A stretch of 64,000 bases of DNA from Pseudomonadales bacterium (GCA_963666465.1 OY762824.1:810112-874111); one strand, 5' to 3'; positions 1 through 62,243 are shown, counted from the stretch's first letter. The notes: generated by a model not told the origin, from the sequence alone. Numbers and translations are program-made.

Positions 1-1581
1 CACCTGGACCCGTTGGTAGGCGATCACCGTGATGAACAGATGGCCCTCGGCACGGCGCGGCTTGCGGTGATGGATGGGGCGCAGGCCCAGTTCGGATTTC
101 AGGGAACGGAACGCCGCCTCGACATCCGTGAGCAGGGTGAAGGTGCGCCACAGGCGCTCCTCGCTGAAGTCGGTCTCGTTGCTGCGCAGGCAATAGACGC
201 CCGGATGGGTGAGCATCGTCCCGGCCACCGGCGTGCGGAGGAAGGTCACCGCCACGGCCCGTTTGCCGCTCTCGTCGGTTGCCACCGCGATGTCGTAGTG
301 TTGGCCGACACCGCGGCTCTTCTCCACCAGCCGGCCGATGCGTTGCCAGATCTTTTCCGGCTTCTTCTGCGTGCGCGGCCGCGACAGCCCCTCGTTGATC
401 GCATCGAGATCCCGCTCCAGGCGTTGCGCAAACCGCTCGGCCATGCCGCGCTCCTTCTCGGCACGCTGCTCGGAGCAGCAGTACAGGCGCACCTCGCCCG
501 CCTCGGCGTCGTCCACCTTCTCCAGATGCACCACCCCGCCGCTGCGGGTGCGGTGGGCGAGTGCCGCCTCGGGCTCGAAGCGGCGCTTGCGCTCGCGCGA
601 GACCACGATGTAGCGGTACCCGTTCGCCTTCAGCCAGTCGACCTGTCGCTCGGTGGCGATGCCCCGGTCGAGCACCACCCGCGACCCCGGCGGTGCCCCG
701 AGCGCGTCCAGCATGCCGGAAAGCGTCCGGTCTTCCTTGACGTTGCCCGCGAACACCCGCGAACGCCGCACGAAACCACCCCCGTCCAGCACCAGCCCCA
801 GGGTGAGCAGCTTGCAGTCGCTGCGCTTCTCCTTCGAATGCCCCCGCCGCGCCTCGGGCTGATCCGCCACATCGCCCTCGTAATAGGTGTTGGTCAGATC
901 GTAGAGCGTCACCGTCGGCGCCAGGTCGAACAGGTCCATGGCGCTCTCGAACAGATGCGCCTCGATCGCTTCGCGGTGGGCAGCCAAGGCATCCGAGGCC
1001 CGGTACAACTGCATCGCCCCCATGGTCTCGAAGTCCACACCCAGCAACTCCCCCAAGGCACTGCGCTCGCGCAGCCAGGCGTGCGTGGCCCGCTCCGAGG
1101 CCGGGTACGCAAGCCGCGCCACGATCGAGGCCACCGCGGCCGTGCACGGCGACGCGTTGATGCCCAGGGTCGACAGCAACTCCATCAGGCCCAACCGCTC
1201 GACCGCCCACAGTCCCGCCTGCTCGACGCCCACGCTGCGCGGGCGCGTCAACTCGAGCGACGCCACGTCCACACGGACCGGATCACGCACCGCTTCGGCG
1301 TCCCCCGCCCGGCCGCGGGCCAGCAGTTGCGCCCCGATCCGTTGCGCTTCTTCCTCGACGGCAGCCGGCGCATCGTCGGTGAGCGGCGCCTGGCCGTTCA
1401 AGATCTCGTCGATGCGCCGGCACAGTTCCGGCCACTCCTCCACAGGCAGGTCGAAATCGCTGCCGAGGTTCAACAACGTGCGCTGGCGGACCTTGGCGCC
1501 GTCGCGCCGACTGTGCACGAGGCGGTGGGAGTGGTAGTCCTGGCCGCCGGTGCGGCGGGTGAGGGTACGGCGGATGAACAT
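1..1581 (-). CDS. IS1634-family DDE transposase, 3' end outside the window
   Basis: Same reading frame and sequence as the 603-aa transposase of copy 2 (offset 2092 nt). The start codon corresponds to 3673 in copy 2. Not in the ORF track because no stop lies inside the window. Confidence 0.9.
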   Translation of the reverse strand, partial: MFIRRTLTRRTGGQDYHSHRLVHSRRDGAKVRQRTLLNLGSDFDLPVEEWPELCRRIDEILNGQAPLTDDAPAAVEEEAQRIGAQLLARGRAGDAEAVRDPVRVDVASLELTRPRSVGVEQAGLWAVERLGLMELLSTLGINASPCTAAVASIVARLAYPASERATHAWLRERSALGELLGVDFETMGAMQLYRASDALAAHREAIEAHLFESAMDLFDLAPTVTLYDLTNTYYEGDVADQPEARRGHSKEKRSDCKLLTLGLVLDGGGFVRRSRVFAGNVKEDRTLSGMLDALGAPPGSRVVLDRGIATERQVDWLKANGYRYIVVSRERKRRFEPEAALAHRTRSGGVVHLEKVDDAEAGEVRLYCCSEQRAEKERGMAERFAQRLERDLDAINEGLSRPRTQKKPEKIWQRIGRLVEKSRGVGQHYDIAVATDESGKRAVAVTFLRTPVAGTMLTHPGVYCLRSNETDFSEERLWRTFTLLTDVEAAFRSLKSELGLRPIHHRKPRRAEGHLFITVIAYQRVQV

Positions 1582-1753
1582 GGCGGGTGACGGTAGCGGC
1601 GCCGGCCACCCATGTCAACCGACACCACCCCATTATGGCACTACATCGGTCGATCCACCCCACCAGGAACCGGAAAACAACGAGTTGCCGACCCCAAAAC
1701 CGTCAATCACCGCAAGATCGGGCGAAAATCACGGGGTTGTTGGTAAAGATGGG
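1..1753 (-). mobile_element. IS1634-family insertion sequence, copy 1 (far end lies outside the window)
   Basis: Matches positions 2093-3845 of copy 2 apart from 2 SNPs. Ends with the same terminal inverted repeat, gttggtaaagatggg, at 1739-1753. Confidence 0.9.
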
Positions 1754-1757
1754 CTAG

Positions 1758-3845
1758 CCCAAGTTTACCAACGAAAAAAATAAACTGTTGTATCTCAACA
1801 ATTTAGGTTGACCGAATCGCGCGCATGGCACTACATTCGTGCCCGACGTGATGGTTTCCCCTCAGACGACCGCCTGGTGTGTCCCCCCGGCTGAGGAGGG
1901 GATCCCCAAGGCATCGAGGATGGCCTTCTGCTGCGGTTCCGGGCGCGTCGCCTTGCGCACATGCAGCGTGCGTCCGTCGGCGCGCTTGAACGTCGCGGTC
2001 ACCCGCTGACGGCCGCCGAGAATCCGTTTGAGCGTCGTCCAGTTCGCCGTGCGCATCGGCCCGTCGCCGCGCTCGGCCAGACGGGTGCGAATCACCTGGA
2101 CCCGTTGGTAGGCGATCACCGTGATGAACAGATGGCCCTCGGCACGGCGCGGCTTGCGGTGATGGATGGGGCGCAGGCCCAGTTCGGATTTCAGGGAACG
2201 GAACGCCGCCTCGACATCCGTGAGCAGGGTGAAGGTGCGCCACAGGCGCTCCTCGCTGAAGTCGGTCTCGTTGCTGCGCAGGCAATAGACGCCCGGATGG
2301 GTGAGCATCGTCCCGGCCACCGGCGTGCGGAGGAAGGTCACCGCCACGGCCCGTTTGCCGCTCTCGTCGGTTGCCACCGCGATGTCGTAGTGTTGGCCGA
2401 CACCGCGGCTCTTCTCCACCAGCCGGCCGATGCGTTGCCAGATCTTTTCCGGCTTCTTCTGCGTGCGCGGCCGCGACAGCCCCTCGTTGATCGCATCGAG
2501 ATCCCGCTCCAGGCGTTGCGCAAACCGCTCGGCCATGCCGCGCTCCTTCTCGGCACGCTGCTCGGAGCAGCAGTACAGGCGCACCTCGCCCGCCTCGGCG
2601 TCGTCCACCTTCTCCAGATGCACCACCCCGCCGCTGCGGGTGCGGTGGGCGAGTGCCGCCTCGGGCTCGAAGCGGCGCTTGCGCTCGCGCGAGACCACGA
2701 TGTAGCGGTACCCGTTCGCCTTCAGCCAGTCGACCTGTCGCTCGGTGGCGATGCCCCGGTCGAGCACCACCCGCGACCCCGGCGGTGCCCCGAGCGCGTC
2801 CAGCATGCCGGAAAGCGTCCGGTCTTCCTTGACGTTGCCCGCGAACACCCGCGAACGCCGCACGAAACCACCCCCGTCCAGCACCAGCCCCAGGGTGAGC
2901 AGCTTGCAGTCGCTGCGCTTCTCCTTCGAATGCCCCCGCCGCGCCTCGGGCTGATCCGCCACATCGCCCTCGTAATAGGTGTTGGTCAGATCGTAGAGCG
3001 TCACCGTCGGCGCCAGGTCGAACAGGTCCATGGCGCTCTCGAACAGATGCGCCTCGATCGCTTCGCGGTGGGCAGCCAAGGCATCCGAGGCCCGGTACAA
3101 CTGCATCGCCCCCATGGTCTCGAAGTCCACACCCAGCAACTCCCCCAAGGCACTGCGCTCGCGCAGCCAGGCGTGCGTGGCCCGCTCCGAGGCCGGGTAC
3201 GCAAGCCGCGCCACGATCGAGGCCACCGCGGCCGTGCACGGCGACGCGTTGATGCCCAGGGTCGACAGCAACTCCATCAGGCCCAACCGCTCGACCGCCC
3301 ACAGTCCCGCCTGCTCGACGCCCACGCTGCGCGGGCGCGTCAACTCGAGCGACGCCACGTCCACACGGACCGGATCACGCACCGCTTCGGCGTCCCCCGC
3401 CCGGCCGCGGGCCAGCAGTTGCGCCCCGATCCGTTGCGCTTCTTCCTCGACGGCAGCCGGCGCATCGTCGGTGAGCGGCGCCTGGCCGTTCAAGATCTCG
3501 TCGATGCGCCGGCACAGTTCCGGCCACTCCTCCACAGGCAGGTCGAAATCGCTGCCGAGGTTCAACAACGTGCGCTGGCGGACCTTGGCGCCGTCGCGCC
3601 GACTGTGCACGAGGCGGTGGGAGTGGTAGTCCTGGCCGCCGGTGCGGCGGGTGAGGGTACGGCGGATGAACATGGCGGGTGGCGGTAGCGGCGCCCGCCA
3701 CCCATGTCAACCGACACCACCCCATTATGGCACTACATCGGTCGATCCACCCCACCAGGAACCGGAAAACAACGAGTTGCCGACCCCAAAACCGTCAATC
3801 ACCGCAAGATCGGGCGAAAATCACGGGGTTGTTGGTAAAGATGGG
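1758..3845 (-). mobile_element. IS1634-family insertion sequence, copy 2 (2088 bp)
   Basis: Terminal IRs cccaagtttaccaac (1758-1772) and gttggtaaagatggg (3831-3845) match 13/15. Subterminal direct 12-mer atggcactacat at 1825-1836 and 3727-3738. Flanked by ctag (1754-1757) and ttag (3846-3849). Confidence 0.9.
1862..3673 (-). CDS. IS1634-family (IS4-like DDE) transposase, 603 aa
   Basis: The N-terminus MFIRRTLTRRTGGQDYHSHRLVHSRRDGAKVRQRTLLNLG is typical of IS1634-family transposases. The ORF recurs 4 times in the window. Confidence 0.9.
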   Translation of the reverse strand: MFIRRTLTRRTGGQDYHSHRLVHSRRDGAKVRQRTLLNLGSDFDLPVEEWPELCRRIDEILNGQAPLTDDAPAAVEEEAQRIGAQLLARGRAGDAEAVRDPVRVDVASLELTRPRSVGVEQAGLWAVERLGLMELLSTLGINASPCTAAVASIVARLAYPASERATHAWLRERSALGELLGVDFETMGAMQLYRASDALAAHREAIEAHLFESAMDLFDLAPTVTLYDLTNTYYEGDVADQPEARRGHSKEKRSDCKLLTLGLVLDGGGFVRRSRVFAGNVKEDRTLSGMLDALGAPPGSRVVLDRGIATERQVDWLKANGYRYIVVSRERKRRFEPEAALAHRTRSGGVVHLEKVDDAEAGEVRLYCCSEQRAEKERGMAERFAQRLERDLDAINEGLSRPRTQKKPEKIWQRIGRLVEKSRGVGQHYDIAVATDESGKRAVAVTFLRTPVAGTMLTHPGVYCLRSNETDFSEERLWRTFTLLTDVEAAFRSLKSELGLRPIHHRKPRRAEGHLFITVIAYQRVQVIRTRLAERGDGPMRTANWTTLKRILGGRQRVTATFKRADGRTLHVRKATRPEPQQKAILDALGIPSSAGGTHQAVV

Positions 3846-3850
3846 TTAGC

Positions 3851-5458
3851 CTAGGAGTTTGTCGGTTTTGAGATTTTGAGGTCGCCGAAAGGGCGACCGT
3901 GAACTGGATATCATGCCAATGGACCGGGTCGGCGTGTTTCGATGTCGGCCACCTGACCGGTCTTGCGCCGCCCATGCACGCCAGATCGGAGTGGAAGCGC
4001 CGCCACAGTCCGATTCTGACGCAAAGGCGAGGGTTGCGGCCGCTCAGCTCAAGGCGTGCATTCGCTTCAGGTTCCAGGCCAGGCAGGTCAGCGTCCATTC
4101 GCCGCGAACCGCCTCCAGTCCGCGCAGGTGGAAGCGCCGAAATCCCATCGCCTCCTTGACGATCCCGAAGACCGTCTCCACCGTCGACTTGCGCCGCGCA
4201 TGCAACGCCCGGCCCTCCGGGGTCTGCAGCCGATGTGCCATGCGCGTTGCCGGATCCGCGTTCTCCGGACAGGGCGGCGGCGATGCGCCCCGCTCCGCCA
4301 GCGGCACGTTGTGCGCCTCGCGCCCCGTGGCGATGTGCGGTGTCAGGCCCGCGGCCTCGCAGTGCGCCACGTTCGCCCGGCTGAAGTGCCCCGCGTCGGC
4401 CAGCAGCCCCTCCGGCTGCCCCAGCGCCGCCGGCAACGCATCCAGCGCCTCGAGCGTCGGCGCCACCTCGCGCCTGTCGTTGCAGCGATCGACCACATCC
4501 GCCGTCACCGCCAGATGGCTTTCGACGTCCACGCCCGACTGCGCGTTGCAGGCCTGCTCGAAACCGTTCGAAGTCGGCATGATGCGGGACTCCGGGTCCG
4601 TCAGGTTCACCTGATCCGCATCCCTCGGCCCTGCCTGTGGCGCCTGGGGTGGACGACCACGGGGCTTTGCGCCCCGTCTTCTCCTCCTTCTCGCGCCGTG
4701 CCTCGAGCCTCTCCTCGTGGTCCGCCTGTTCCGCCGCGTGGCGTTCCTGCGCGCGCCGTTCGATCTCCGCCTGCGCCGCCTCGATCACCGCCAGCCGTTC
4801 CGCGCGACGCTTCAACTCCTCCGGAACATCCAGTTCAGGCTCCGAATCCTCTGCCTGCGCCGCCTGCCCGGGCAGCGCCGACACCTCGCCGCGCAACTGC
4901 TCCTCGAGGCGCTTCGCATGCCCCCAGCCGAGCGCCCTGTGCCGGCTCGCGTTCGCCTGAACCTTTGTCCCGTCCAGACTCGCGTTGCCCAGCTTCAGCA
5001 AACCCGTCTCTTGCGCGATCAACAGAATCCGAACGAACAGCCCCTGCAGGTCCTCGAGAAAACGCCTGCGGAAACTCGCAGTCGTGTCGTGGTCCGGATG
5101 CGAGTTCGCCGCAATGTGCCGGAACGCCACCGAATCGCAGGTCGCCCGCTCCAGCCTGCGGCTCGAAAAGACCCCCGTCGCGCAGCCGTGGAACAGCAGA
5201 CCCAGCAACAGCGACGGATGATGCGGATCCTTCCCGCCGCCACCGCATTGACGCTCCAGCGCGCTCAGGTCCAGCCGATCCACAATGTCCACCACAAACC
5301 GCGCCAGATGATCGTCCGGCAACCAGTCCTGCACCGACGGCGGCAGAAGGCAGGGCGTGTCACGATCCACTGGGCGAAACTTCGAGGACATCGGTCAGGC
5401 GTCCATCAACAACGGCAAACCAATTTTACCTGGATCGCCAAATCCGACAGGCTGCTAG
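3851..5458 (-). mobile_element. IS1182-family insertion sequence (about 1.6 kb)
   Basis: Imperfect terminal IRs ctaggagtttgtcggttttg (3851-) and caaatccgacaggctgctag (-5458) enclose the IS1182-type transposase. Confidence 0.7.
4044..5391 (-). pseudogene. IS1182-family transposase interrupted by a 1-nt frameshift
   Basis: The N-terminal part (LLPPSVQDWLPDDHLARF...SSRRLERA...PDHDT) is in the frame of ORF 3799..5391. The C-terminal DDE part (DADQVNLTDPESRIMP...) is in the frame of ORF 4044..4610. The frames meet at about 4661-4671 (ggggctttgcg). Confidence 0.8.
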
Positions 5459-6849
5459 CTGGCCCGCTCCCTGCCCTCGCCCGCACCGCCAACAGTCCGT
5501 TCACCGGGCGCCTGCAGGAGATCCTTCTCGCGCGTAACGTAGCGCACCGGACTTGGTAGGCTCTTCAACACGCTTTCCTCAACGAGACGCTGAACCCAAG
5601 CATCCGCCGTAGGCTTCGTTACCCCCAACGCACCCGCGATCTCCCTGGATTGTTTCGGTTCCGCGCAGAGCACGAACGCCAACGAACGCACCTTCTGGTA
5701 CAGATCTTCGGCGGGGTCGACATTCGCTTCCGCAGCCGCCTCACTCGTCTCTCGCCCGCACGAACTCACCACCGGAGCCGCCTCGCACGCCGTCCGGGAC
5801 GACTCGCGAGTTTCCTCCCCGGCGATGGTCAGCTCCGCTTGGACCTCCAGGTGTTCCGTGGCCGCATCGTCGCGCTGGCCCACCCTGTTGACGCATTCCA
5901 CGCTGCCCTGGATGTTGAACGCGGGGTCGCGGACCCCTTCCAGCCAGCGCCCTCCAAGTGCAACGAGGTCGGGATTGCCCGAGTCCGGCGCTTCGGTCCG
6001 CTTGACCCAAAGTGGCACCCATCCTTGCCTAAGGTTCTCGACCGCGCCCTTCCACGTTCCGCCGCTCTCCGTTGCACTGGTTACGACGATGGCGTCGTGG
6101 GCCAGGCAATAGATGTACTTGTTCCGCGCCATGGCGTTGCCCACCATGAAACGCGATTCGGGATTGAACGGCGAGACAAGTGCCAGATCGCCGGACATGA
6201 GGTGCTTGCGGTACCTCGTCGAAGTAGCGGCCCGCAGCAGGCCGTCGCCAAGTACGCCGATTGCGGTACCTTCGGCATGGAGAGCGCCGAACATGGCTGC
6301 CTGATCCACGCCCGCCGCGCCTCCGGACACGACCAACTCGCCACTCTCCGCCGCGTGGCGGCCGATACTCTCGGCGAAGTCGATGTCCGCATCGCCGGCG
6401 TGTCTTGAGCCAACCACAGCAATGCTGCTTGCGCCCAGGAGGTCCCGGTTGCCGCAGCCGAATAGGACCGCCGGCGCAGTCCTTCCGAGGAGCTGCTTCA
6501 GCCGGCGTGGGTAACCGGCGTCCGAACGCGTGACCACCCACAATCCTGCCCGCTGCCACTTCTCGAGCGCAAACCCGAGTGCCGCGCCCCGATTCAGCAG
6601 CGCCTGCACACGTGGAGTCGTCACCTTGCGATGGTCCCAATGTCCAAGCAAGGTCGTCAGGTCACTCTTGAGCAGATCGCCCGGCGCCAGGGCTTCGTCC
6701 TTGAGCCAACCCGCGAACTCGCCCCACTCTGTAGGCGTCAGGGGCCTGACTCCGCCGGCGCCACGCCTGCCAAGCGGCACCGTAAGCAGCATGACCGCCT
6801 CGGTCTCTCGGGTCACTTCCACCTCAGCCTCCGGGACTTCTCGTGGCAA
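5455..6849 (-). CDS. DprA/Smf-like DNA-processing protein (Rossmann/SLOG fold) with C-terminal winged-helix
   Basis: Shows ...IAVVGSRHAGD...VVSGGAAGVDQAAMFGAL...ARNKYIYCLA, typical of DprA, plus a C-terminal HTH-like stretch (SREIAGALGVTKPTADAWVQRLVEE). The stop TAG lies inside the CTAG at the IS1182 terminus. An alternative start is M20, at 6792. Confidence 0.8.
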   Translation of the reverse strand: MPREVPEAEVEVTRETEAVMLLTVPLGRRGAGGVRPLTPTEWGEFAGWLKDEALAPGDLLKSDLTTLLGHWDHRKVTTPRVQALLNRGAALGFALEKWQRAGLWVVTRSDAGYPRRLKQLLGRTAPAVLFGCGNRDLLGASSIAVVGSRHAGDADIDFAESIGRHAAESGELVVSGGAAGVDQAAMFGALHAEGTAIGVLGDGLLRAATSTRYRKHLMSGDLALVSPFNPESRFMVGNAMARNKYIYCLAHDAIVVTSATESGGTWKGAVENLRQGWVPLWVKRTEAPDSGNPDLVALGGRWLEGVRDPAFNIQGSVECVNRVGQRDDAATEHLEVQAELTIAGEETRESSRTACEAAPVVSSCGRETSEAAAEANVDPAEDLYQKVRSLAFVLCAEPKQSREIAGALGVTKPTADAWVQRLVEESVLKSLPSPVRYVTREKDLLQAPGERTVGGAGEGRERAS

Positions 6850-7255
6850 GCGCGAATGGCAACACCGCGGAACAGTCAGCTCGTCGGAGGAGGGCCGCCA
6901 CGACCGTGAGCGTCCATCCTGAGTTCACTACGTCGTCAACCAGCAGTACGGCCCCTTCCCGCACCGAGCGTTCAACGGCGAAAACGCCATCCAGATTATG
7001 GCACTGATGGAACCTGTTCTCCTGTTCCTTCTGGGCGCCGTTGCTCTTCACCTTCGCCACCACCGGCGAAAACGGCAGTGACAATGCTTCCGCGAGCCGA
7101 CTCGCGTAGTCCGGTACGAGGTTGGGATGACGACTCGACGGCACGCACGTGACCCACGTCGGCCAGGGGTCCGGCCGCCACCGTTCCGTGATCATCTCCA
7201 CCGCCGCCCCGACGAGTCCATCTCGAAATTGACCGGAGTGTTTGTCGTCCGCCAC
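6824..7255 (-). CDS. ComF/ComFC-type phosphoribosyltransferase domain (probably the C-terminal part of a RecQ-PRTase fusion; a GTG at 7255 is an alternative own start)
   Basis: WVTCVPSSRHPNLVPDYASRLAEALSLPF...NLDGVFAV...VLLVDDVVNSGWTLTV is a PRPP-binding loop of ComF-like PRTases. The frame is offset by 1 nt from the RecQ frame. Confidence 0.7.
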   Translation of the reverse strand: MADDKHSGQFRDGLVGAAVEMITERWRPDPWPTWVTCVPSSRHPNLVPDYASRLAEALSLPFSPVVAKVKSNGAQKEQENRFHQCHNLDGVFAVERSVREGAVLLVDDVVNSGWTLTVVAALLRRADCSAVLPFALATRSPGG

Positions 7256-8909
7256 GGCTTCCCCACCCGGAATCGCCCCACCAAGAGAGTACCTGTCCCG
7301 TCTCGGCGTGGAGCCTCGCGGGGAGATTCCCCGACCAGCCGTATTCGAGAAACGACCCCTTCGCAACTTGCCTGTTGCATGACAGCGGTATCTCCGCCTG
7401 CCGGAGAAACCGCGTGGCCGCAACCACGGTCTCGTGCGCAACCGCGGTGTTGACTATGGGGCTGCCCATGCACCGCGCGCATTTTCCGCACGGCTTCGGC
7501 TCGGAATCGTCCAGCGCCCTTGCCAGGAATTGCATGAGGCACCCGGGCTCGTCGACGTACAACTGCACCTGTTGCCATTCCGCTTCCCTCTGGGCCGTTA
7601 ACCGCCTGATACGCTCCGCGTCGATTCGATAGGGAACAGCAGTTCGCCGCCATCTGGAACCGTCCTTGACCACCGGGGCGGCATTCTCCACGGACAACAC
7701 CTTCACGACCTTCTCGATCTGCCGGTGGCGCAGGTTCAACGACTGTTCCAGGTCCCAAAGCGACATTCCCTCTTCGTTCTCAAGCGCACGCAAGACATCG
7801 GCCACCCATCGCTCCTCCGGGAAGGCGGTCCTGCGGAAGTACTCGTGGATCTCTCCGTCTTCGACACCCGACAACAGCACGCCGACGGCACGCCCGCACG
7901 CCCGACCTGCTTGGTAGTAGGCAATGATGGATCCCGGTGCCTGGAAGTGCACCACGAAGCCAAGGTCCGGCTTGTCGTAGCCCATGCCCAGGGCCGTCGT
8001 TGCGACCAACGCCTTCACCTCGTTGCGATCGAGAGCTAGTTCCAACCGTCGCCGGTATGCGTCTGAGTCCGGGCAATCTTCGTGGACGACATTCGCGTGG
8101 TACGGTCGTACAAGAATGCCGCGCTCATTCAGCCACGCCGAAACCTGTTCGGCGTCACGCGTGGTCAAGGTATAGACAATGCCCGTGCCCGGGAGCTCGA
8201 CGATGTATTCGGCGAGCCAGGCGAGTCGCTCCGCCTGCGTTGGCAGGCGTACGGTCTGCAGATGCAGGCTCTCGCGCAACAACGTCCCACGCTGGACGTT
8301 CAGCTCGCCCAACTGACGCCTTGCATCCTCGATGACGCGGTCATTGGCGGTCGCGGTGGTCCCGACGATCGGCACATTCGCCGGCATTCGCCGAAGCACA
8401 CTCGCAAGGCGCCGATAGTCGGGTCGGAAATCGTGTCCCCAGTCCGATATGCAGTGGGCCTCATCAACGACCAGCAGCCCAAGCCTGTCCGATACCGGCA
8501 GGAGCAGCTCATCCATGAAGTCCTCGTTGGCGAGGCGTTCCGGCGAGATCAGCAGCACATCCGCCTGGTCCTTCAGTACGGCCCGTCTCAAATCGGGCCA
8601 CTCAGGGCGGTTCGTGGAGTTGATGGTGAGGGCCCGGATGCCCATCCGTTCGGCTGCCGCAACCTGGTTCCGCATCAAGGCCAGCAACGGAGATACGATC
8701 AACGTCGCGCCTGAACCGCGGTCGCGAAGCATGCGAGTTGCGACGAAGTAGACCGCGCTCTTCCCCCAACCCGTTCGCTGGACCAACAGCAGCCGTTCGC
8801 GGCGGGTCACCAGGGCATCGATGGCCTCCCACTGACCGTTCCGGAACTCCGCCTGCGTGTTAGCAAGCAAGCGGCGCAGCAATGTCAGAGCCGTGGATCT
8901 ATCGGCCAT
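6996..8909 (-). CDS. recQ: RecQ-family ATP-dependent DNA helicase (meaningful sequence ends near 7262; the last ~85 codons are out-of-frame read-through)
   Basis: Walker A QRTGWGKS, DEAH box VVDEAHCISDWGHDFRPDYRRL, helicase C motifs ...ALVATTALGMGYDKPDLGFVVH..., and a Cys cluster CGKCARC. Confidence 0.85.
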   Translation of the reverse strand: MADRSTALTLLRRLLANTQAEFRNGQWEAIDALVTRRERLLLVQRTGWGKSAVYFVATRMLRDRGSGATLIVSPLLALMRNQVAAAERMGIRALTINSTNRPEWPDLRRAVLKDQADVLLISPERLANEDFMDELLLPVSDRLGLLVVDEAHCISDWGHDFRPDYRRLASVLRRMPANVPIVGTTATANDRVIEDARRQLGELNVQRGTLLRESLHLQTVRLPTQAERLAWLAEYIVELPGTGIVYTLTTRDAEQVSAWLNERGILVRPYHANVVHEDCPDSDAYRRRLELALDRNEVKALVATTALGMGYDKPDLGFVVHFQAPGSIIAYYQAGRACGRAVGVLLSGVEDGEIHEYFRRTAFPEERWVADVLRALENEEGMSLWDLEQSLNLRHRQIEKVVKVLSVENAAPVVKDGSRWRRTAVPYRIDAERIRRLTAQREAEWQQVQLYVDEPGCLMQFLARALDDSEPKPCGKCARCMGSPIVNTAVAHETVVAATRFLRQAEIPLSCNRQVAKGSFLEYGWSGNLPARLHAETGQVLSWWGDSGWGSRGGRQTLRSISRWTRRGGGGDDHGTVAAGPLADVGHVRAVESSSQPRTGLRESARGSIVTAVFAGGGEGEEQRRPEGTGEQVPSVP

Positions 8910-9191
8910 TCATACCTACGCAACTCGACCACTGCGGTACGCCACAGTCTAGCCCGACCTATTCACGAAGGTTGGATGTGGAGGTTCAGCAAGTCCCTGC
9001 CATGCCAGGTCCTACGAGGGGTGGGCGGACAGCGCCCCCCCCGAAGCGCACCAAAGGCACCCACGCAGAGGCGCCGGATCAACGCCCGCAAAATCCCTTT
9101 GCCGACGAAGCCAGCACCAAGGCGAGCCCGCCTGTCCACCAGCCCGACCCCTCTATAATCGCGGGCGAGCCAAGCCCAACAAGGACCCCAC

Positions 9192-10853
9192 ATGGAAGAC
9201 CAACCCCGCGAGTCCATGGACTTCGACGTCGTCATCGTCGGCGGCGGCCCCTCCGGCTTGGCAGCCGCCTGCCGCCTGATGCAGCTCGGCAGCGAAGCCG
9301 GACGTGAGCTTTCCGTCTGCCTCGTGGAGAAAGGCTCCGAGATCGGCGCGCACATCCTCTCCGGTGCCGTGCTGGCGCCGAAGTCGCTTAACGAACTGTT
9401 TCCGGACGCGGCGGCGAACGGCGCGCCGCTCGACAACCCCGTCACCGACGACCGCTTCTATTTCCTCGTTAACGACACCAACCGCATCCTGCTACCCATG
9501 TGGACGATCCCCGGCGAGAGCAAGAACGCCGGCAACTACGCACTCTCGCTCGGCAATCTCTGCCGCTGGCTCGGCACCCAGGCCGAGGAGCTGGGCGTGA
9601 ACGTGTTTCCGGGCTTTGCCGCTGCCGAGATTCTCTATGGCGACGATGGTTCCGTGCGCGGCATCGCCACCAAGGACATGGGCGTCGATGCGCGCGGCGA
9701 GCGCAAGCCGGTGTTCGAGCCGGGCTACGAGCTGCGCGCCAAGTACACGCTGTTCGCCGAGGGCTGTCGCGGGCATCTCGGCAAGGAACTCATGGCCAGG
9801 TTCGGCCTCGCCAAGGACTCCGCAACGCAGCACTATGCCATCGGCCTGAAAGAGCTTTGGGACGTGGACCCCGAACGTCACCAACCGGGCGCCATTGTGC
9901 ATGGCGTTGGCTGGCCGCTCGGCCGCGTGCGTGGAACGAGCGGCGGGTCGTTCCTCTACCACCTGCCCAACAACCAGGTTTCTCTTGGCATCATTGTTGA
10001 TCTGTCGTACCGCAATCCGCATCTGTCGCCATTCGACGAATTGCAGCGGCTCAAGCACCATCCCCTGTTCGCCGATGTGCTGCGTGGCGGGCGGCGCGTG
10101 GCGTACGGTGCCCGCGCCATCGTCAAGGGCGGCATCCGGGCACTGCCCCGCCTGACGGTGCCGGGGGCCGCATTGGTCGGCGACGACGCCGGCTTCCTGA
10201 ACGCCCTCAAGATCAAGGGCTCGCACACCGCGATGAAGTCGGGGATGCTGGCGGCGGAATCCGTTTTCGACGCGCTCGAACGGGGCGAGGAGAACACCGA
10301 GCTCGCAGATTTCAGCGACCGCGTGAACGACTCCTGGCTGGGCCGGGAATTGCACGGTGCCCGCAACATCCAGCCGGGGCTGCACAAGTTCGGCACGCTG
10401 TTTGGCGCCACCTATGCCTGGATTGACCAGAAGATCGCCCGCGGGCACATGCCCTTCACCCTCGCCGATCCCACGCCAGACCACGCGACCCTGATGCCGG
10501 CGGCGAAGGCGCCCACGATCGACTATCCGAAGCCGGACGGCGAACTCTCCTTCGACAAGCTCTCGTCGGTGTTCCTCTCGAACACCAACCATGAAGAGGA
10601 CCAGCCCTGCCACCTCACGCTGGCGGATGCCGCAGTGCCGATCCGCGACAACCTGCCGATGTTCGACGAGCCGGCGCAGCGCTATTGCCCGGCGGGGGTT
10701 TACGAGGTGATCGAGGAAGCCGGCGAATCCCGCTTCCAGATCAATGCCCAAAACTGCGTCCACTGCAAGACCTGCGACATCAAGGACCCGGCGCAGAACA
10801 TCACGTGGGTGGTGCCGGAGGGAATGGGGGGGCCGAACTACCCGAACATGTAG
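9192..10853 (+). CDS. Electron-transfer flavoprotein:ubiquinone oxidoreductase (ETF-QO)
   Basis: FAD motif DVVIVGGGPSGLAAA, a C-terminal 4Fe-4S motif CVHCKTCDIKDP, and a 553-aa length typical of ETF-QO. Confidence 0.95.
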   Translation: MEDQPRESMDFDVVIVGGGPSGLAAACRLMQLGSEAGRELSVCLVEKGSEIGAHILSGAVLAPKSLNELFPDAAANGAPLDNPVTDDRFYFLVNDTNRILLPMWTIPGESKNAGNYALSLGNLCRWLGTQAEELGVNVFPGFAAAEILYGDDGSVRGIATKDMGVDARGERKPVFEPGYELRAKYTLFAEGCRGHLGKELMARFGLAKDSATQHYAIGLKELWDVDPERHQPGAIVHGVGWPLGRVRGTSGGSFLYHLPNNQVSLGIIVDLSYRNPHLSPFDELQRLKHHPLFADVLRGGRRVAYGARAIVKGGIRALPRLTVPGAALVGDDAGFLNALKIKGSHTAMKSGMLAAESVFDALERGEENTELADFSDRVNDSWLGRELHGARNIQPGLHKFGTLFGATYAWIDQKIARGHMPFTLADPTPDHATLMPAAKAPTIDYPKPDGELSFDKLSSVFLSNTNHEEDQPCHLTLADAAVPIRDNLPMFDEPAQRYCPAGVYEVIEEAGESRFQINAQNCVHCKTCDIKDPAQNITWVVPEGMGGPNYPNM

Positions 10854-11507: not shown

Positions 11508-11634
11508 AATGGGCGCTTGTCCTAGCAGCCTGTCGGACTTCGGACGGCGTAAGCTGGCCGAATGCCGACAAGGGTGACAGGACGGCTGGGGCTGGGGCAA
11601 GAAGCGTTGCCGAAAGGCAACGGTTCTTGTGGCG

Positions 11635-11820
11635 CTAGCCCCGGATTGTCCATGAATGCCCTACTGCGGACGACGACACATTCGCTGTGGCTGTGCATGC
11701 TCACCCCAGCCGACTCGACATGGTGCGCAGCCATGCCTTCGCCGTCTTCCACTCCGCTCACACAGCCACAGCGGCGTCTCGTCGCCCTCGCTACGCGCAT
11801 TCATGAACAATCCGGGCTAG
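11635..11820. mobile_element. MITE-like element U2 (186 bp) with ~24-bp terminal inverted repeats
   Basis: Ends are ctagccccggattgtccatgaatgc ... gcattcatgaacaatccgggctag. There is an internal 12-bp perfect palindrome arm, gctgtggctgtg/cacagccacagc. Single copy in this window. Confidence 0.6.
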
Positions 11821-11983
11821 GAGTCTGCGCCGTAGAAACTTTTCCGGGGACATGCACCCTAATACGGCGAGAAAAATCCATCTTCTGGGAGGTCCTGTCC
11901 CTCGTCAGGAACGTTTCGGGGCGAGCAATGGGGGATCACACCACATTTTCGGCGCGAGATCGTCCTACGGCGCAGACTCCTAG
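11817..11983. mobile_element. MITE-like element U3 (167 bp) with 19-bp perfect terminal inverted repeats
   Basis: Ends are ctaggagtctgcgccgtag ... ctacggcgcagactcctag. A second, inverted and end-truncated copy lies at 61937-62098. Confidence 0.75.
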
Positions 11984-12181
11984 CGCGCCCTTGCGGGCGC
12001 GTCGGCAGTTCGCTTCGCGAACTGCTTGGCCTTCGGCTCGCATTCGCTCGCGCCTTCGGCTAGGAGGTAAGCGCCGTTCTACGGCGCTTACCTTGCATGG
12101 AAGTACGCCCCCAGCGATGGGGGAATTGCCGGTACTTCCTTACGCGTCAGCGGTCGGGGATGCTTCCCCGGCTGAAGGCTC

Positions 12182-13147
12182 CTAGCCACCGATGAACTTC
12201 ATCACGGTCACCTCGCCGGTGAACGACAGTGTCTGCTTGTCGCCCAGCGCCGCCAGCAGGAGGCGCTGCAGGCCGGCTCGGGCACCATCGTCCGGCAGTG
12301 CCAGCAGGTCCTTCATGTCGTGGCGGCGACTGCTGGACAGACAGCCGTAAAGAAAGCCGTTGGAGGAAAGGCGCAGCCGCGTGCAGGAGGCGCAGAACGG
12401 CTCCGACTCGTTGGCGATGATGCCGAACACCCCACGACCCGGCACCTCGAAGCGCACCGAGGTCGAGTCGAAGGCGGCATCGGTGCGGGCGTATTCATAG
12501 CGCGACCCGATCAGGGCCAAGATGTCCTCCATGCCGAAGAAATCCCGCGCGAACGAGGCGCCCTGCTTCAGGTGCCCCATGTTCATCAGCTCGATGTAGC
12601 GCAGTTCGATGGCGCGATCGAGGCAATAGTCGAGCATCGGCAACACTTGGTCCACGTTCGCCGTGCGCATGGGCACCATGTTCACCTTCACCTTGAGACC
12701 CGCCTCGATCATGAGGTCGATGCCGTGCAGCACGGTTGCGAGGTCGCCGCTGCGGGCGATGGCGTGGAAGCGATTGGGGTCCAGCGTGTCGAGGCTCACG
12801 TTGATGCGGCGCACGCCGGAGTCGATCACCGTGCGAGCCTTGCGCGGCAGGAGCTGGCCGTTGGTGGTGATGGATACGTCCGACAGCCCGAGTGCCATCA
12901 CCTCCGGCAGCACTTCCTCGAACTTGGGCGAAAGCAGCGGCTCGCCGCCGGTGATGCGCAGCTTCTCGATCCCCGCCGACTCGATGAGCAGCCGCACCGC
13001 CCGCACAAGCTCGCTGGCCGAGAGCTCGAGCGCGGCCGCTTGCAGGCGCTTGCCGTCCGGCACGCAATAGGTGCAGGCGTAGTTGCAGGCCGCGGTGAGG
13101 CTGAGGCGAAGATTGCGGAATCGCCGGCCTTGTGCGTCAACGATCAT
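12182..13147 (-). CDS. moaA: GTP 3',8-cyclase MoaA (radical SAM, molybdenum cofactor biosynthesis)
   Basis: Radical-SAM motif CNYACTYC and MoaA-like sequence throughout. The proposed ATG at 13147 (MIVDAQGRRFRNLRLS) gives 321 aa; the ORF extends to 13381. Confidence 0.9.
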   Translation of the reverse strand: MIVDAQGRRFRNLRLSLTAACNYACTYCVPDGKRLQAAALELSASELVRAVRLLIESAGIEKLRITGGEPLLSPKFEEVLPEVMALGLSDVSITTNGQLLPRKARTVIDSGVRRINVSLDTLDPNRFHAIARSGDLATVLHGIDLMIEAGLKVKVNMVPMRTANVDQVLPMLDYCLDRAIELRYIELMNMGHLKQGASFARDFFGMEDILALIGSRYEYARTDAAFDSTSVRFEVPGRGVFGIIANESEPFCASCTRLRLSSNGFLYGCLSSSRRHDMKDLLALPDDGARAGLQRLLLAALGDKQTLSFTGEVTVMKFIGG

Positions 13148-14384: not shown

Positions 14385-14497
14385 GGGCGGCGAGTAGCGC
14401 CTTGGGGCGAGAGGGCATCCTGGCCTCCCAACGCCCCCACAGGGGGTTGCAGCAAGCGGAATTTTCTTCCTAAACGCAGGCGGAATATCCTTCCTAG

Positions 14498-16609
14498 CCC
14501 AAGTTTACCAACGAAAAGAATAAACTGTTGTATCTCAACAATTTAGGTTGACCGAATCGCGCGCATGGCACTACATTCGTGCCCGACGTGATGGTTTCCC
14601 CTCAGACGACCGCCTGGTGTGTCCCCCCGGCTGAGGAGGGGATCCCCAAGGCATCGAGGATGGCCTTCTGCTGCGGTTCCGGGCGCGTCGCCTTGCGCAC
14701 ATGCAGCGTGCGTCCGTCGGCGCGCTTGAACGTCGCGGTCACCCGCTGACGGCCGCCGAGAATCCGTTTGAGCGTCGTCCAGTTCGCCGTGCGCATCGGC
14801 CCGTCGCCGCGCTCGGCCAGACGGGTGCGAATCACCTGGACCCGTTGGTAGGCGATCACCGTGATGAACAGATGGCCCTCGGCACGGCGCGGCTTGCGGT
14901 GATGGATGGGGCGCAGGCCCAGTTCGGATTTCAGGGAACGGAACGCCGCCTCGACATCCGTGAGCAGGGTGAAGGTGCGCCACAGGCGCTCCTCGCTGAA
15001 GTCGGTCTCGTTGCTGCGCAGGCAATAGACGCCCGGATGGGTGAGCATCGTCCCGGCCACCGGCGTGCGGAGGAAGGTCACCGCCACGGCCCGTTTGCCG
15101 CTCTCGTCGGTTGCCACCGCGATGTCGTAGTGTTGGCCGACACCGCGGCTCTTCTCCACCAGCCGGCCGATGCGTTGCCAGATCTTTTCCGGCTTCTTCT
15201 GCGTGCGCGGCCGCGACAGCCCCTCGTTGATCGCATCGAGATCCCGCTCCAGGCGTTGCGCAAACCGCTCGGCCATGCCGCGCTCCTTCTCGGCACGCTG
15301 CTCGGAGCAGCAGTACAGGCGCACCTCGCCCGCCTCGGCGTCGTCCACCTTCTCCAGATGCACCACCCCGCCGCTGCGGGTGCGGTGGGCGAGTGCCGCC
15401 TCGGGCTCGAAGCGGCGCTTGCGCTCGCGCGAGACCACGATGTAGCGGTACCCGTTCGCCTTCAGCCAGTCGACCTGTCGCTCGGTGGCGATGCCCCGGT
15501 CGAGCACCACCCGCGACCCCGGCGGTGCCCCGAGCGCGTCCAGCATGCCGGAAAGCGTCCGGTCTTCCTTGACGTTGCCCGCGAACACCCGCGAACGCCG
15601 CACGAAACCACCCCCGTCCAGCACCAGCCCCAGGGTGAGCAGCTTGCAGTCGCTGCGCTTCTCCTTCGAATGCCCCCGCCGCGCCTCGGGCTGATCCGCC
15701 ACATCGCCCTCGTAATAGGTGTTGGTCAGATCGTAGAGCGTCACCGTCGGCGCCAGGTCGAACAGGTCCATGGCGCTCTCGAACAGATGCGCCTCGATCG
15801 CTTCGCGGTGGGCAACCAAGGCATCCGAGGCCCGGTACAACTGCATCGCCCCCATGGTCTCGAAGTCCACACCCAGCAACTCCCCCAAGGCACTGCGCTC
15901 GCGCAGCCAGGCGTGCGTGGCCCGCTCCGAGGCCGGGTACGCAAGCCGCGCCACGATCGAGGCCACCGCGGCCGTGCACGGCGACGCGTTGATGCCCAGG
16001 GTCGACAGCAACTCCATCAGGCCCAACCGCTCGACCGCCCACAGTCCCGCCTGCTCGACCGCCCACAGTCCCGCCTGCTCGACGCCCACGCTGCGCGGGC
16101 GCGTCAACTCGAGCGACGCCACGTCCACACGGACCGGATCACGCACCGCTTCGGCGTCCCCCGCCCGGCCGCGGGCCAGCAGTTGCGCCCCGATCCGTTG
16201 CGCTTCTTCCTCGACGGCAGCCGGCGCATCGTCGGTGAGCGGCGCCTGGCCGTTCAAGATCTCGTCGATGCGCCGGCACAGTTCCGGCCACTCCTCCACA
16301 GGCAGGTCGAAATCGCTGCCGAGGTTCAACAACGTGCGCTGGCGGACCTTGGCGCCGTCGCGCCGACTGTGCACGAGGCGGTGGGAGTGGTAGTCCTGGC
16401 CGCCGGTGCGGCGGGTGAGGGTACGGCGGATGAACATGGCGGGTGACGGTAGCGGCGCCGGCCACCCATGTCAACCGACACCACCCCATTATGGCACTAC
16501 ATCGGTCGATCCACCCCACCAGGAACCGGAAAACAACGAGTTGCCGACCCCAAAACCGTCAATCACCGCAAGATCGGGCGAAAATCACGGGGTTGTTGGT
16601 AAAGATGGG
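14498..16609 (-). mobile_element. IS1634-family insertion sequence, copy 3 (2112 bp)
   Basis: Same IRs as copy 2. Perfect 4-bp direct repeat ctag at 14494-14497 and 16610-16613. Carries a 24-bp tandem duplication absent from copies 1 and 2. Confidence 0.95.
14602..16437 (-). CDS. IS1634-family transposase, 611 aa (8-aa EQAGLWAV duplication)
   Basis: Identical to the copy 2 protein except for the duplicated octapeptide and A->V (ALVAHREAIE). Confidence 0.9.
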   Translation of the reverse strand: MFIRRTLTRRTGGQDYHSHRLVHSRRDGAKVRQRTLLNLGSDFDLPVEEWPELCRRIDEILNGQAPLTDDAPAAVEEEAQRIGAQLLARGRAGDAEAVRDPVRVDVASLELTRPRSVGVEQAGLWAVEQAGLWAVERLGLMELLSTLGINASPCTAAVASIVARLAYPASERATHAWLRERSALGELLGVDFETMGAMQLYRASDALVAHREAIEAHLFESAMDLFDLAPTVTLYDLTNTYYEGDVADQPEARRGHSKEKRSDCKLLTLGLVLDGGGFVRRSRVFAGNVKEDRTLSGMLDALGAPPGSRVVLDRGIATERQVDWLKANGYRYIVVSRERKRRFEPEAALAHRTRSGGVVHLEKVDDAEAGEVRLYCCSEQRAEKERGMAERFAQRLERDLDAINEGLSRPRTQKKPEKIWQRIGRLVEKSRGVGQHYDIAVATDESGKRAVAVTFLRTPVAGTMLTHPGVYCLRSNETDFSEERLWRTFTLLTDVEAAFRSLKSELGLRPIHHRKPRRAEGHLFITVIAYQRVQVIRTRLAERGDGPMRTANWTTLKRILGGRQRVTATFKRADGRTLHVRKATRPEPQQKAILDALGIPSSAGGTHQAVV

Positions 16610-16726
16610 CTAGGCAAACGAGGAATCATGTTCCTAGAAATTAGGGATTTTTTCTCCTAGAGAAATGTTGCCATCTTCAAACAACGGGGTTAGATTTCGA
16701 CTTGGTGTCCTTACGGAGATGGCGAC

Positions 16727-20643: not shown

Positions 20644-20786
20644 GCCACAGAACATCGCGGATGGGAAGATCCCGCGCCCCAAGGGCACATCAACCTCCGC
20701 CCAAGCGGGAAGAAGAGGTGGGAGCGCCCGCGCCGCGCCTCTCTGGGGGGCGTCTCGCCCTCCTCGCGCGCCGCAAGGCGCGTTAA

Positions 20787-38136: not shown

Positions 38137-38439
38137 CCGCAAAGTGGAACCATACGCGAACGTGCCCTCCAAGGACATTCCTTCAAGGGCCGAGCCCGCA
38201 CCACGCTGCCTCCCATGCGCCGTCAGGCGCGTCGTGGTCGGGAATGTGGCTGGCACGACCTTGCGGTATGGCGTGGTACGATCATCGGGACTTTGACGCT
38301 CGATCCGAAGTCGCTCCTAACCGGAGTGGTGAACGGAGCGACCCGAAGGCCAGCAGTTGCTACGCAACTGCCTGGCGCGAAAACTGCGAAGGGAAGTACG
38401 CGACCGTTCTCCAACTCGACAGTTTTTACGGCGCTTACC

Positions 38440-38613
38440 TTGCATGGAAGCACGCCCCCAGCGATGGGGGAATTGCCGGCACTTCCTTGCGCGTCAGCGG
38501 TCGGGGATGCTTCCCCGGCTGAAGGCTTGCATGGAAGCACGCCCCCAGCGATGGGGGAATTGCCGGCACTTCCTTGCGCGTCAGCGGTCGGGGATGCTTC
38601 CCCGGCTGAAGGC
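38440..38613 (+). repeat. Two perfect tandem copies of the 87-bp intergenic element (type E)
   Basis: The unit ttgcatggaagcacgcccccagcgatgggggaattgccggcacttccttgcgcgtcagcggtcggggatgcttccccggctgaaggc occupies 38440-38526 and 38527-38613, followed by tcctag. Confidence 0.9.
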
Positions 38614-38647
38614 TCCTAGGCAGGACATAGAACAGGGATTGCAGATC

Positions 38648-51357: not shown

Positions 51358-51646
51358 CCTCGCCCTCCTTTTTCGCCGCCCTCGCGGCATGTTCTTCGCC
51401 AGGCGGCATTGTCCGCGAAACCCGCGACAAATGCGCGCCACATCCTCCCAACCGCACGCCATTCGGGCGTGATGGAGGCAGGATGCCCTCCCTGGCGCCC
51501 CAAGGCACGCTTCTCCGCAGGGCCGAGCGGACACTGCGACGCAAGCGTCGCAGGACGGCGCAGTCATGGGCACGGACTACCCCTCTCCGAAGAGGCGGTC
51601 CCCGGCTTCTTCGGAGAGGCGCCGCCCCGCAAAATCCCGCCCAAGC

Positions 51647-51821: not shown

Positions 51822-51869
51822 TCCATAGGCTCGTCCATTGTTGGCCATTTTCGGTTACTTTGCGCGGCC

Positions 51870-58049: not shown

Positions 58050-58065
58050 GGCTACTGGCCCCTCG

Positions 58066-62191: not shown

Positions 62192-62243
62192 CCCTACCCA
62201 TGCCCCACAAGGGGCACGGGGCTTTTCGGCTGTTGCTGACGTT

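Follow-up and report, generated by a model that had tools for sequence, protein, structure and literature searches.

The locus described here is very probably a decayed copy of the known PsyrTA/RqlHI toxin-antitoxin phage defense pair, with psyrT a pseudogene and psyrA intact. It lies in a 64,000-nt stretch of Pseudomonadales bacterium DNA (GCA_963666465.1 OY762824.1:810112-874111), referred to as the window. Given this identity, the locus is already known and is not a new system. A first-pass annotation had placed three minus-strand coding segments here, and all three were found where it had put them. Its three-gene operon nevertheless reduces to two minus-strand genes, psyrT followed by psyrA, the third apparent segment being the product of a frameshift within the single toxin gene. 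It had also named no characterized RecQ-fused version; this version has already been named and tested, as PsyrTA of P. syringae (Sberro 2013) and as RqlHI of E. coli F11 (Russell & Mulvey 2015, PMC4670107), and defense by PsyrTA has been demonstrated (Millman 2022, bioRxiv 10.1101/2022.05.11.491447). This literature describes a helicase-PRTase (phosphoribosyltransferase) toxin followed by a DprA-like antitoxin, PRTase-dependent toxicity, and antiphage activity; a growth-inhibitory toxin, a neutralizing antitoxin, and phage protection are known for other members of the family.

Results

The locus and its surroundings comprise the following features (window coordinates).

6824 to 8909, minus strand: psyrT (rqlH) pseudogene, RecQ-like SF2 helicase plus C-terminal PRTase in two frames (PADLOC, homologue alignment)
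8909 to 7263, minus strand: helicase part of psyrT (Pfam, PADLOC)
7261 to 6824, minus strand: PRTase part of psyrT, in a frame one nt further on (Pfam, PADLOC)
7896 to 7913, minus strand: psyrT lesions 1 and 2, +1 and -13 nt (DNA alignment with L081, L082, L083, L001, and L084)
7261 to 7262, minus strand: psyrT lesion 3, -2 nt (alignment with outgroups and L084)
6923 to 6925, minus strand: AAC codon of psyrT, Asn for Asp in the PRPP loop (comparison with 105 homologues)
5455 to 6822, minus strand: psyrA (rqlI), DprA-like antitoxin gene, 455 aa (PADLOC, alignment, structure model)
8910 to 9191, strandless: intergenic region of 282 nt between psyrT and the divergent ETF-QO gene
3850 to 5454, minus strand: IS1182-family-like element, transposase ORF 5391-3799 (NCBIfam, Pfam, inverted repeats)
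1 to 3849, minus strand: two tandem IS1634-family copies, 1-1753 (the first, cut by the window edge) and 1754-3849 (NCBIfam, self-BLAST)

The PADLOC check proposed in the first-pass annotation matched both genes, end to end, to PsyrT and PsyrA. Taken together, the two adjoining psyrT frames are homologous to PsyrT over its full length, from the helicase N terminus (profile positions 5-542, 740.7 bits, 3.7e-223) to the PRTase C terminus (positions 541-685, 175.6 bits, 3.6e-52), and the product of psyrA matches its profile at positions 4-396 of 398 (6.5e-133). The helicase segment is recognized by Pfam DEAD, Helicase_C, and ResIII, with a weak RecQ_Zn_bind match below the cutoff of that model, and passes the cutoff of the NCBIfam RecQ-family subfamily TIGR00614 (222 versus 219.8 bits). 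It carries the motifs TGWGKS and VVDEAHCISDWGHDFRPDY and the Cys cluster CGKCARC. The PRTase segment matches Pfam Pribosyltran (2.5e-8) and carries VLLVDDVVNSGWT. Homologues of about 699 aa are 84 to 65% identical to the window psyrT product; one from an E. coli plasmid is 54.7% identical over its full length, and its K49 and D148 correspond in number to the residues that were mutated in RqlH.

The DprA-like gene lies directly downstream on the same strand. Its start is a GTG at 6822 (MEVTRETEAV...), preceded by GGAGG and one base past the psyrT stop, rather than the TTG at 6849 assumed previously; this start agrees with PsyrA of the homologous loci L081-L083 and with the public gene call P0241, which is identical to the window PsyrA. 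The toxin-antitoxin order, with stop and start one base apart, is a further likeness to PsyrTA/RqlHI. PsyrA matches Pfam DNA_processg_A (5.7e-38) and SLOG cluster 4, and its AlphaFold2 model (mean pLDDT 75.6) predicts a SAM-like N terminus, a Rossmann domain (94-294), a disordered linker, and a C-terminal winged helix (370-430) with helix-helix-helix-strand-strand topology. As modeled, this DprA fold with a C-terminal HTH/winged helix resembles what has been described for RqlI, and the best Foldseek matches of the model are DprA 3MAJ, ShosA 8ZVA, and DprA 3UQZ. Pfam, NCBIfam, and AlphaFold2/Foldseek thus bear out the domains first read from the sequence, a RecQ-family helicase, a PRTase, and a DprA-like SLOG protein with a winged helix. 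PsyrA has a 16-aa C-terminal extension; an origin of this tail in the IS insertion was considered and rejected, as the IS-free sister contig L084 has the same tail and stop.

We compared the pair with the systems it most resembles. The window helicase shares with canonical RecQ the SF2 RecQ-family core and a Zn-binding Cys cluster, but it scores 237 bits against the 640.2-bit cutoff of the recQ equivalog TIGR01389, and it gave no match to an HRDC domain. PsyrA likewise has the Rossmann fold of canonical DprA but falls short of the cutoffs of TIGR00732 (89 versus 191.15 bits) and NF008007 (70 versus 495), and the PRTase differs from ComF/ComFC in the same way (TIGR00201, 26.2 versus 233.55 bits). 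Unlike canonical RecQ and DprA, PsyrT and PsyrA are encoded by a mobile, patchily distributed gene pair. DpdF, from the Dpd 7-deazaguanine DNA modification system, ranks second among the PADLOC families matching the helicase part (6.7e-80), but it lies about 470 bits below PsyrT, and there are no other dpd genes nearby. The M. smegmatis RqlH, as cited in PMC4670107 (its ref. 21), is a RecQ-like helicase with a PRTase but without RqlI; according to that account, its helicase activity was shown biochemically and its PRTase is dispensable for unwinding. The architecture is that of the window psyrT, whereas the window keeps the DprA-like partner and it is the toxin that decayed. Homologues in Gram-positive bacteria almost always lack a DprA-like partner.

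ShosTA (Rst_DprA-PPRT; Kimelman 2012, Rousset 2022, Nat Commun 2025 PMC11961720) also combines a DprA-like antitoxin with a PRTase-containing toxin, and the literature ascribes genotoxic, filamentation-type toxicity to both ShosTA and PsyrTA/RqlHI. ShosA (2.8e-25) and ShosT (2.5e-6) are the second-best PADLOC families, which upholds the kinship with DprA-like plus PRTase antiphage pairs suggested by the first-pass annotation, and among the structural matches of the PsyrA model, ShosA 8ZVA ranks second. In ShosT, however, the PRTase is joined to an N-terminal pyrophosphatase/hydrolase domain, whereas in the window toxin it is joined to a RecQ-like helicase; ShosT matches the PRTase part only, and the window toxin is not of the ShosT type (hydrolase/PPase plus PRTase, no helicase).

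The cutoffs given above bear directly on the possibility that the locus is a housekeeping or competence ssDNA-processing trio like ComFA/ComFC/DprA, its DprA-like gene being the transformation gene of the genome. The Pfam DNA_processg_A match and the weak matches of the PRTase to ComF-family models would fit such a trio, as would the synteny of the locus between two strains of the species within a core ETF neighborhood. PsyrA and the PRTase nevertheless lie far below the dprA and comF cutoffs (PsyrA reaches 89 of the 191 bits required of a dprA equivalog, in agreement with the earlier view that this is not a competence operon), the PsyrT and PsyrA defense profiles match at 1e-133 to 1e-223, close homologues stand in unrelated, mobile, or defense contexts, and a housekeeping helicase-PRTase would not decay independently in two strains. 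We regard a competence role as barely credible, the least so of all the readings weighed here.

The search gave 8,000 homologues; most of the best 120 consist of one ORF of about 699 aa, and the family is patchy across many phyla. Of 76 loci, which span many phyla, 72 have a PsyrA-like gene directly downstream of the psyrT homologue, so that the co-occurrence of the helicase-PRTase with the DprA-like gene, which had been put forward as a check, is borne out. The closest intact members are found near defense or mobile genes: they adjoin integrases, IS elements, PARIS AriAB, HEC-06/GmrSD, and proteins matching the Ppl and PDC-S11 profiles.

The window toxin gene differs from those of characterized PsyrTA/RqlHI systems in being decayed in motif VI, the PRTase frame, and the PRPP-loop Asp. 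Lesion 1 is an extra A at about 7912 and lesion 2 a 13-nt deletion at about 7897 (net -12 nt). Together, these +1/-13 indels turn motif VI, YYQQVGRAGRGIxRAVG, into YYQAGRACGRAVG, reducing its QQVGRAGR to QAGRACGR; across 105 homologues, the Q-V-G-R columns of this motif show 98% conservation or more. In the DNA alignment, both lesions are missing from all of L081, L082, L083, L001, and L084. Lesion 3 removes 2 nt at 7262/7261, within a G/A run (GGGTGGGG^AAGCC) that follows an invariant GWG; it throws the PRTase out of frame, and the helicase frame stops at 6998-6996 after 87 out-of-frame codons. Owing to this lesion, helicase and PRTase are not a single uninterrupted polypeptide in the window, and the sole long product predicted from psyrT is a 637-aa helicase remnant without the PRTase. 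The outgroups and L084 have two more bases at this site, so the deletion is derived in the window; because the outgroups and the sister strain are continuous here, the window locus is a decayed rather than an intact member of PsyrTA. The frame break seen in the first-pass annotation is this 2-nt deletion; the motif VI lesions had been missed.

The PRPP loop is altered by substitution. The last Asp of the block DD[VI]VDS (DDVVDS), present in 105 of 105 homologues, is replaced by Asn in the window; the change is window specific, and L084 keeps the Asp. With Walker A and DEAH retained and motif VI and the PRPP loop changed, the catalytic motifs of the toxin are not all intact. The changed Asp belongs to the four-residue block mutated in RqlH, in which a DIVD-to-EVME change abolished toxicity (PMC4670107). 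Equating it with RqlH D663 (mutant D663A) was considered and dropped, as D663 could be the first or the last Asp of DIVD, and exact equivalence is not claimed.

Taken alone, a 2-nt deletion in a G/A run could be an assembly error. Extending this to the whole locus, one might suppose that the system is intact and functional and that the frameshift, perhaps together with the motif VI change, is an artifact of long-read sequencing or assembly. Such homopolymer contexts are error-prone in some long-read chemistries, and the genome, which consists of one 5.83-Mb contig and keeps identical IS copies apart, is probably a long-read assembly. A 13-nt deletion with an adjacent +1 insertion is not a typical homopolymer error, however, the replacement of an invariant Asp by Asn is a substitution and not an indel, and the other large ORFs of the window are unbroken. 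The comparison of two independent assemblies argues further against an artifact. The sister contig L084 is 98.7 to 99.5% identical to the window and has the same gene order, and its psyrT carries 8 different derived indels, none in common with those of the window. Across the two strains, psyrT has 11 indels, whereas psyrA and ETF-QO have 0 each; at the psyrT rate, the absence of indels from psyrA plus ETF-QO (3,030 nt) has a Poisson probability of about 2e-6, and that from psyrA alone, 0.003. Since psyrT has different indels in the two assemblies and its neighbors have none, these indels are real mutations, and we consider an intact system highly unlikely. psyrT decayed independently in the two sister strains.

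We give still less credence to a new three-part variant, a helicase-extended relative of ShosTA in which helicase and PRTase are expressed separately or joined by programmed frameshifting. The three reading frames do abut, ShosT and ShosA are secondary PADLOC matches, and translation of a separate PRTase of 143 aa could in principle begin at the GTG at 7255. Yet the best 120 homologues are continuous through the site, where the GWG is invariant, with the exceptions of the window entry P0015 and the truncated P0058; the sister strain is unshifted at the lesion 3 site, which means that the frameshift is not conserved; and motif VI is destroyed as well. In E. coli RqlH, moreover, the PRTase domain alone is nontoxic, as is the form lacking the PRTase (PMC4670107).

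Judged from its sequence, psyrT is a true pseudogene, with several independent inactivating lesions and different ones in the sister strain, and not, as first thought, a gene whose frame merely needs repair; toxicity and defense would have been lost at this locus. psyrT also shows an excess of mismatches against L084 (1.16% versus 0.6%). Part of it is an alignment artifact, since L084 has a hidden +1/-1 indel pair, and the excess is not counted as primary evidence. By comparison with L084, psyrA has a dN/dS of about 0.35, similar to the 0.32 of ETF-QO; with 8 two-strain substitutions in psyrA and about 16 to 24 in psyrT, these values are indicative only. psyrA is probably under purifying selection.

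Another difference from PsyrTA/RqlHI is the setting: the cassette stands by itself as two genes in a core ETF neighborhood, between the ETF-QO and etfBA (ETF-beta/alpha) housekeeping genes, and lies outside any defense island. Its GC3 is 0.71 to 0.77, against 0.78 to 0.91 in core genes, and no flank homology was found between this locus and other psyrTA loci. Together with the mobile or defense context of the closest intact homologues, this suggests that the cassette was horizontally acquired. The psyrTA promoter presumably lies in the 282-nt region at 8910-9191, but a scan of 5300-9300 gave no site resembling a sigma-70 promoter or a terminator. The region at 8910-9191 is not homologous to the corresponding upstream sequences of L081-L083 or L001. 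The window contains no tRNA genes. In L081-L083, a divergent and seemingly conserved "gene" upstream of psyrT was discarded as a false call because it is Arg/Pro rich (GC2 0.67), unconserved in L083, and absent from the window.

The pile of IS elements noted beside the operon does exist, as one IS1182-family-like element and two tandem IS1634-family copies, but they inserted recently, occur in the window strain only, and do not belong to the cassette. The IS1182-family-like element starts directly after the psyrA stop codon, matches NCBIfam transpos_IS1182 (2.5e-48) over its N-terminal half as well as Pfam DUF772, and has terminal TGTCGGxTTTG inverted repeats; homology with L084, from which the element is absent, stops exactly at 5455. 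The tandem IS1634 copies (NCBIfam transpos_IS1634, 2.5e-75), also absent from L084, are 98.6 to 99.9% identical to two further copies at 14494-16613 and 20784-22898.

Discussion

We propose that a two-gene PsyrTA toxin-antitoxin, or abortive-infection, cassette was acquired horizontally and inserted between the ETF-QO and ETF-beta/alpha genes. According to the literature, intact PsyrT unites a RecQ-like 3'-5' helicase with a C-terminal PRTase in a single polypeptide, and the PRTase is the genotoxic effector that leads to SOS induction and filamentation. Intact PsyrA, with its SAM-like, Rossmann, and winged-helix domains, binds and neutralizes the toxin, which is thought to be released upon phage infection. 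In the window, psyrT is dead and psyrA intact, so that the locus would now supply an orphan antitoxin only; the IS elements arrived later, in this strain alone.

As an extension of this explanation, orphan PsyrA may be actively kept for a cross-protective or toxin-independent role, a possibility that we hold only tentatively. PsyrA may neutralize a second PsyrT or incoming PsyrT elements (anti-addiction), or it may act as a DprA/ShosA-like recombination helper. A second, intact PsyrTA pair seems to be present in the source genome: a 699-aa PsyrT (P0007, 80% identical) and a PsyrA (P0248, 71% identical) are listed on a contig of 5,831,812 bp, the length also given for the contig of the window proteins. 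This second pair, the contrast in indels between psyrA and psyrT (P = 0.003), the dN/dS of psyrA, and the requirement of ssDNA binding by ShosA for neutralization (PMC11961720) are in line with a retained function. On the other hand, the divergence between the two strains is small, and retention could partly reflect time; at 71% identity between the paralogous antitoxins, cross-neutralization is putative; and the translational coupling of psyrA to psyrT has been lost.

Whether or not its antitoxin is actively kept, the decayed PsyrTA pair raises no new mechanistic question. For annotation, it means that trios of RecQ, "ComF-like PRTase," and "DprA" beside IS elements are best interpreted as PsyrTA/RqlHI and as neither competence genes nor a new type of defense; automated pipelines mislabel the pair as "RecQ family helicase" and "DNA-processing protein DprA." As a small and clear-cut case of cassette decay, the locus shows the toxin lost first, independently in sister strains, and the antitoxin retained. 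The combination of a decayed copy and an apparently intact second paralogue in the same genome is a pattern that could be used for testing antitoxin cross-talk.

RESULTS

The three minus-strand coding segments picked out by the first-pass annotation, and every motif quoted for them, are present in the window (G+C content, 66%), subject to the corrections described further on, and with a matching Pfam domain in each:

8909-6996, minus strand: helicase ORF, 637 aa; Pfam DEAD, Helicase_C, ResIII and, weakly, RecQ_Zn_bind
7441-6824, minus strand, in a different frame from the helicase ORF: phosphoribosyltransferase (PRTase) ORF; Pfam Pribosyltran
6849-5455, minus strand: DprA-like ORF; Pfam DNA_processg_A and SLOG cluster 4

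These had been read as a three-part operon of a RecQ helicase, a ComF-type PRTase, and a DprA-like protein. All three parts score below the NCBIfam equivalog cutoffs for RecQ, ComF, and DprA. In PADLOC, both the helicase ORF (3.7e-223, profile positions 5-542 of 689) and the PRTase ORF (3.6e-52, positions 541-685) match the defense profile of a single protein, PsyrT, and the DprA-like ORF matches essentially the whole PsyrA profile (6.5e-133). With the frame-joined PsyrT as the query, 8000 homologues were recovered, and the best 120 of these (top identity, 84%) are mostly single ORFs of ~699 to 700 aa. A PsyrA-like gene lies directly 3' of the toxin gene in 72 of the 76 loci with sufficient downstream sequence, out of 80 genomic psyrT loci from phyla that include Pseudomonadota, Acidobacteriota, Chloroflexota, Cyanobacteria, Planctomycetota, Bacteroidota, and Actinomycetota. 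The locus is therefore the two-gene module PsyrTA, alias RqlHI, a system that is already known.

PsyrTA/RqlHI is a toxin-antitoxin pair that combines a DprA-like antitoxin with a toxin made up of a RecQ-like helicase and, at its C terminus, a PRTase; toxicity, seen as SOS induction and filamentation, requires the PRTase and is lost upon PRTase deletion (PMC4670107). Phage protection by the pair was shown by Millman et al. (bioRxiv 10.1101/2022.05.11.491447). The gene order is invariably toxin, then antitoxin. Rst_DprA-PPRT, the pair named in the first-pass annotation, corresponds to the sister system ShosTA; its toxin has a pyrophosphatase where PsyrT has a helicase. The second-ranked PADLOC families, DpdF for the helicase part, ShosT for the PRTase part, and ShosA for the DprA-like part, all score far below PsyrT and PsyrA.

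The true start of psyrA is a GTG at 6822 (MEVTRETEAV...), one base past the psyrT stop with a GGAGG ahead of it, in agreement with homologues and with the public gene call P0241, whose sequence is identical to window PsyrA. An AlphaFold2 model (mean pLDDT, 75.6) starts with a SAM-like helical N terminus, followed by a Rossmann domain; residues 304-368 form a disordered linker, and residues 370-430 form a winged helix at the C terminus. Its best Foldseek matches are three-domain DprA 3MAJ, ShosA 8ZVA, and DprA 3UQZ, and PDB sequence searches are consistent with this result.

Protein and DNA alignments with the closest intact homologues (L081-L083, ~80% nucleotide identity, and L001) place three derived indels in window psyrT:

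~7912, minus strand: lesion 1, an extra A
~7897, minus strand: lesion 2, a 13-nt deletion
7262/7261, minus strand: lesion 3, a 2-nt deletion directly 3' of the invariant GWG, which puts the entire PRTase domain out of frame

Lesions 1 and 2 together remove a net 12 nt and throw 16 nt out of frame, turning the invariant helicase motif VI, YYQQVGRAGRGI-RAVG, into YYQAGRACGRAVG. Furthermore, window PsyrT has Asn (codon 6925-6923) at the position of the final Asp in the PRPP-loop block DD[VI]VDS, an Asp present in 105/105 homologues. In RqlH, a DIVD-to-EVME change of this four-residue block abolished toxicity (PMC4670107), and the published mutant D663A alters either its first or its last Asp. Window PsyrT also carries 8 private deviations at near-invariant columns, the most among 106 aligned sequences (median, 1). 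As judged from these alignments, window psyrT is a pseudogene.

Indels of this kind might be attributed to sequencing error. A PsyrA search led to an independent metagenomic contig (L084) that encodes a 99%-identical protein. This contig is 98.7 to 99.5% identical to the window across ~16 kb, and its genes are arranged as in the window (Mpl, SBP, MoaA, DUF1285, ETF-QO, psyrT fragments, psyrA, etfB, etfA). With outgroups used to polarize the changes, none of the three window indels is present in L084; its psyrT remnant (L084 7881-9969) carries eight others (-1, -10, +1, -1, -1, +1, plus a +1/-1 pair), and no psyrT indel is common to both. Between the two contigs, psyrA (1368 nt) and ETF-QO (1662 nt) show zero indels, where ~13 would be expected at the psyrT rate (Poisson P ~2e-6; P = 0.003 for psyrA alone). 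The corresponding dN/dS values (psyrA, ~0.35; ETF-QO, 0.32; psyrT, 0.68) are indicative only because the counts are small. The psyrT indels are thus evidently not an artefact. Since they are not shared and psyrA is free of them, the comparison shows that the toxin gene decayed independently in two sister lineages, with the antitoxin gene remaining intact.

The compensating +1/-1 pair in L084 scrambles Walker A (GWGKSA to GLGEER) and parallels the +1/-13 pair in motif VI of the window; thus, in each strain, paired local frameshifts have eliminated one ATPase motif of the helicase. In the psyrT/ETF-QO intergenic region, a putative promoter region, a G-rich run (GGGGGA, ~9042) differs by 6 nt in length between the two contigs.

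The cassette is bordered by ETF-QO (9192-10853, plus strand) on one side and, in L084, by etfBA on the other; its GC3 (0.71 to 0.77) is below that of the window core genes (0.78 to 0.91), and its flanks have no homology to other psyrTA loci. The following elements of the window are absent from L084, which has no IS elements over the ~16 kb compared:

directly after the psyrA stop: IS1182-family-like element
1-1753 and 1754-3849, beyond that element: IS1634-family copies in direct tandem
14494-16613 and 20784-22898: two more IS1634-family copies

Given this absence, the elements are recent insertions confined to this strain, and the IS1634-family copies indicate a recent IS expansion. The four copies are near-identical, are flanked by 4-bp CTAG/TTAA-type duplications, and have transposase genes (603 versus 611 aa) that differ by a single unit of an internal 24-nt tandem repeat. 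A REP/MITE-like intergenic repeat of ~87 to 89 nt with internal palindromes (11520-12187, 38421-38624, 51638-51830, 58060-58172, and 61643-62193) is found as single units, in inverted arrangement, or as perfect tandem dimers; L084 has this repeat as well.

By the criterion set in the first-pass annotation, this context is that of a mobile defense module, not of a core competence operon. The closest intact homologues (80 to 81% identical) occupy unrelated genomic places, among tyrosine integrases, IS21, IS66, and Mu-like transposases, and beside fused PARIS AriAB, HEC-06/GmrSD, and proteins matching Ppl and PDC-S11 profiles. On the E. coli IncF plasmid NZ_OX030731.1 (33349-43469), psyrT/psyrA lie within a type I restriction-modification operon, with hsdS on one side and hsdR on the other; this pair is annotated "RecQ family helicase" and "DprA".

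DISCUSSION

The first-pass annotation thus identified the right family neighborhood, but the system had already been described, and the window's PsyrTA is a degenerate copy of it. A second PsyrTA, apparently intact, is very probably present in the source genome outside the 64-kb window and consists of a 699-aa PsyrT (P0007, 80% identical to the window copy) and a 440-aa PsyrA (P0248, 71% identical). The 637-aa window ORF (P0015) and window PsyrA (P0241) are assigned to a contig of 5,831,812 bp, and both members of the second pair to a contig of precisely this size with matching sources.

From the literature, the RecQ-like helicase of an intact system would restrain or target a PRTase effector harmful to DNA metabolism, and the toxin would be bound and neutralized by its DprA-like partner until infection relieves this neutralization. 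At the window locus, translation from the ATG at 8909 would instead yield a helicase remnant without motif VI, ending in an 87-aa nonsense tail and lacking the PRTase. By analogy with RqlH deleted for its PRTase, this remnant is presumably nontoxic. The locus should then provide neither toxicity nor defense, PsyrA being its sole contribution. Retention of psyrA because its product cross-neutralizes PsyrT, whether encoded by the paralogue or by newly arriving genes, is a tentative and somewhat doubtful explanation.
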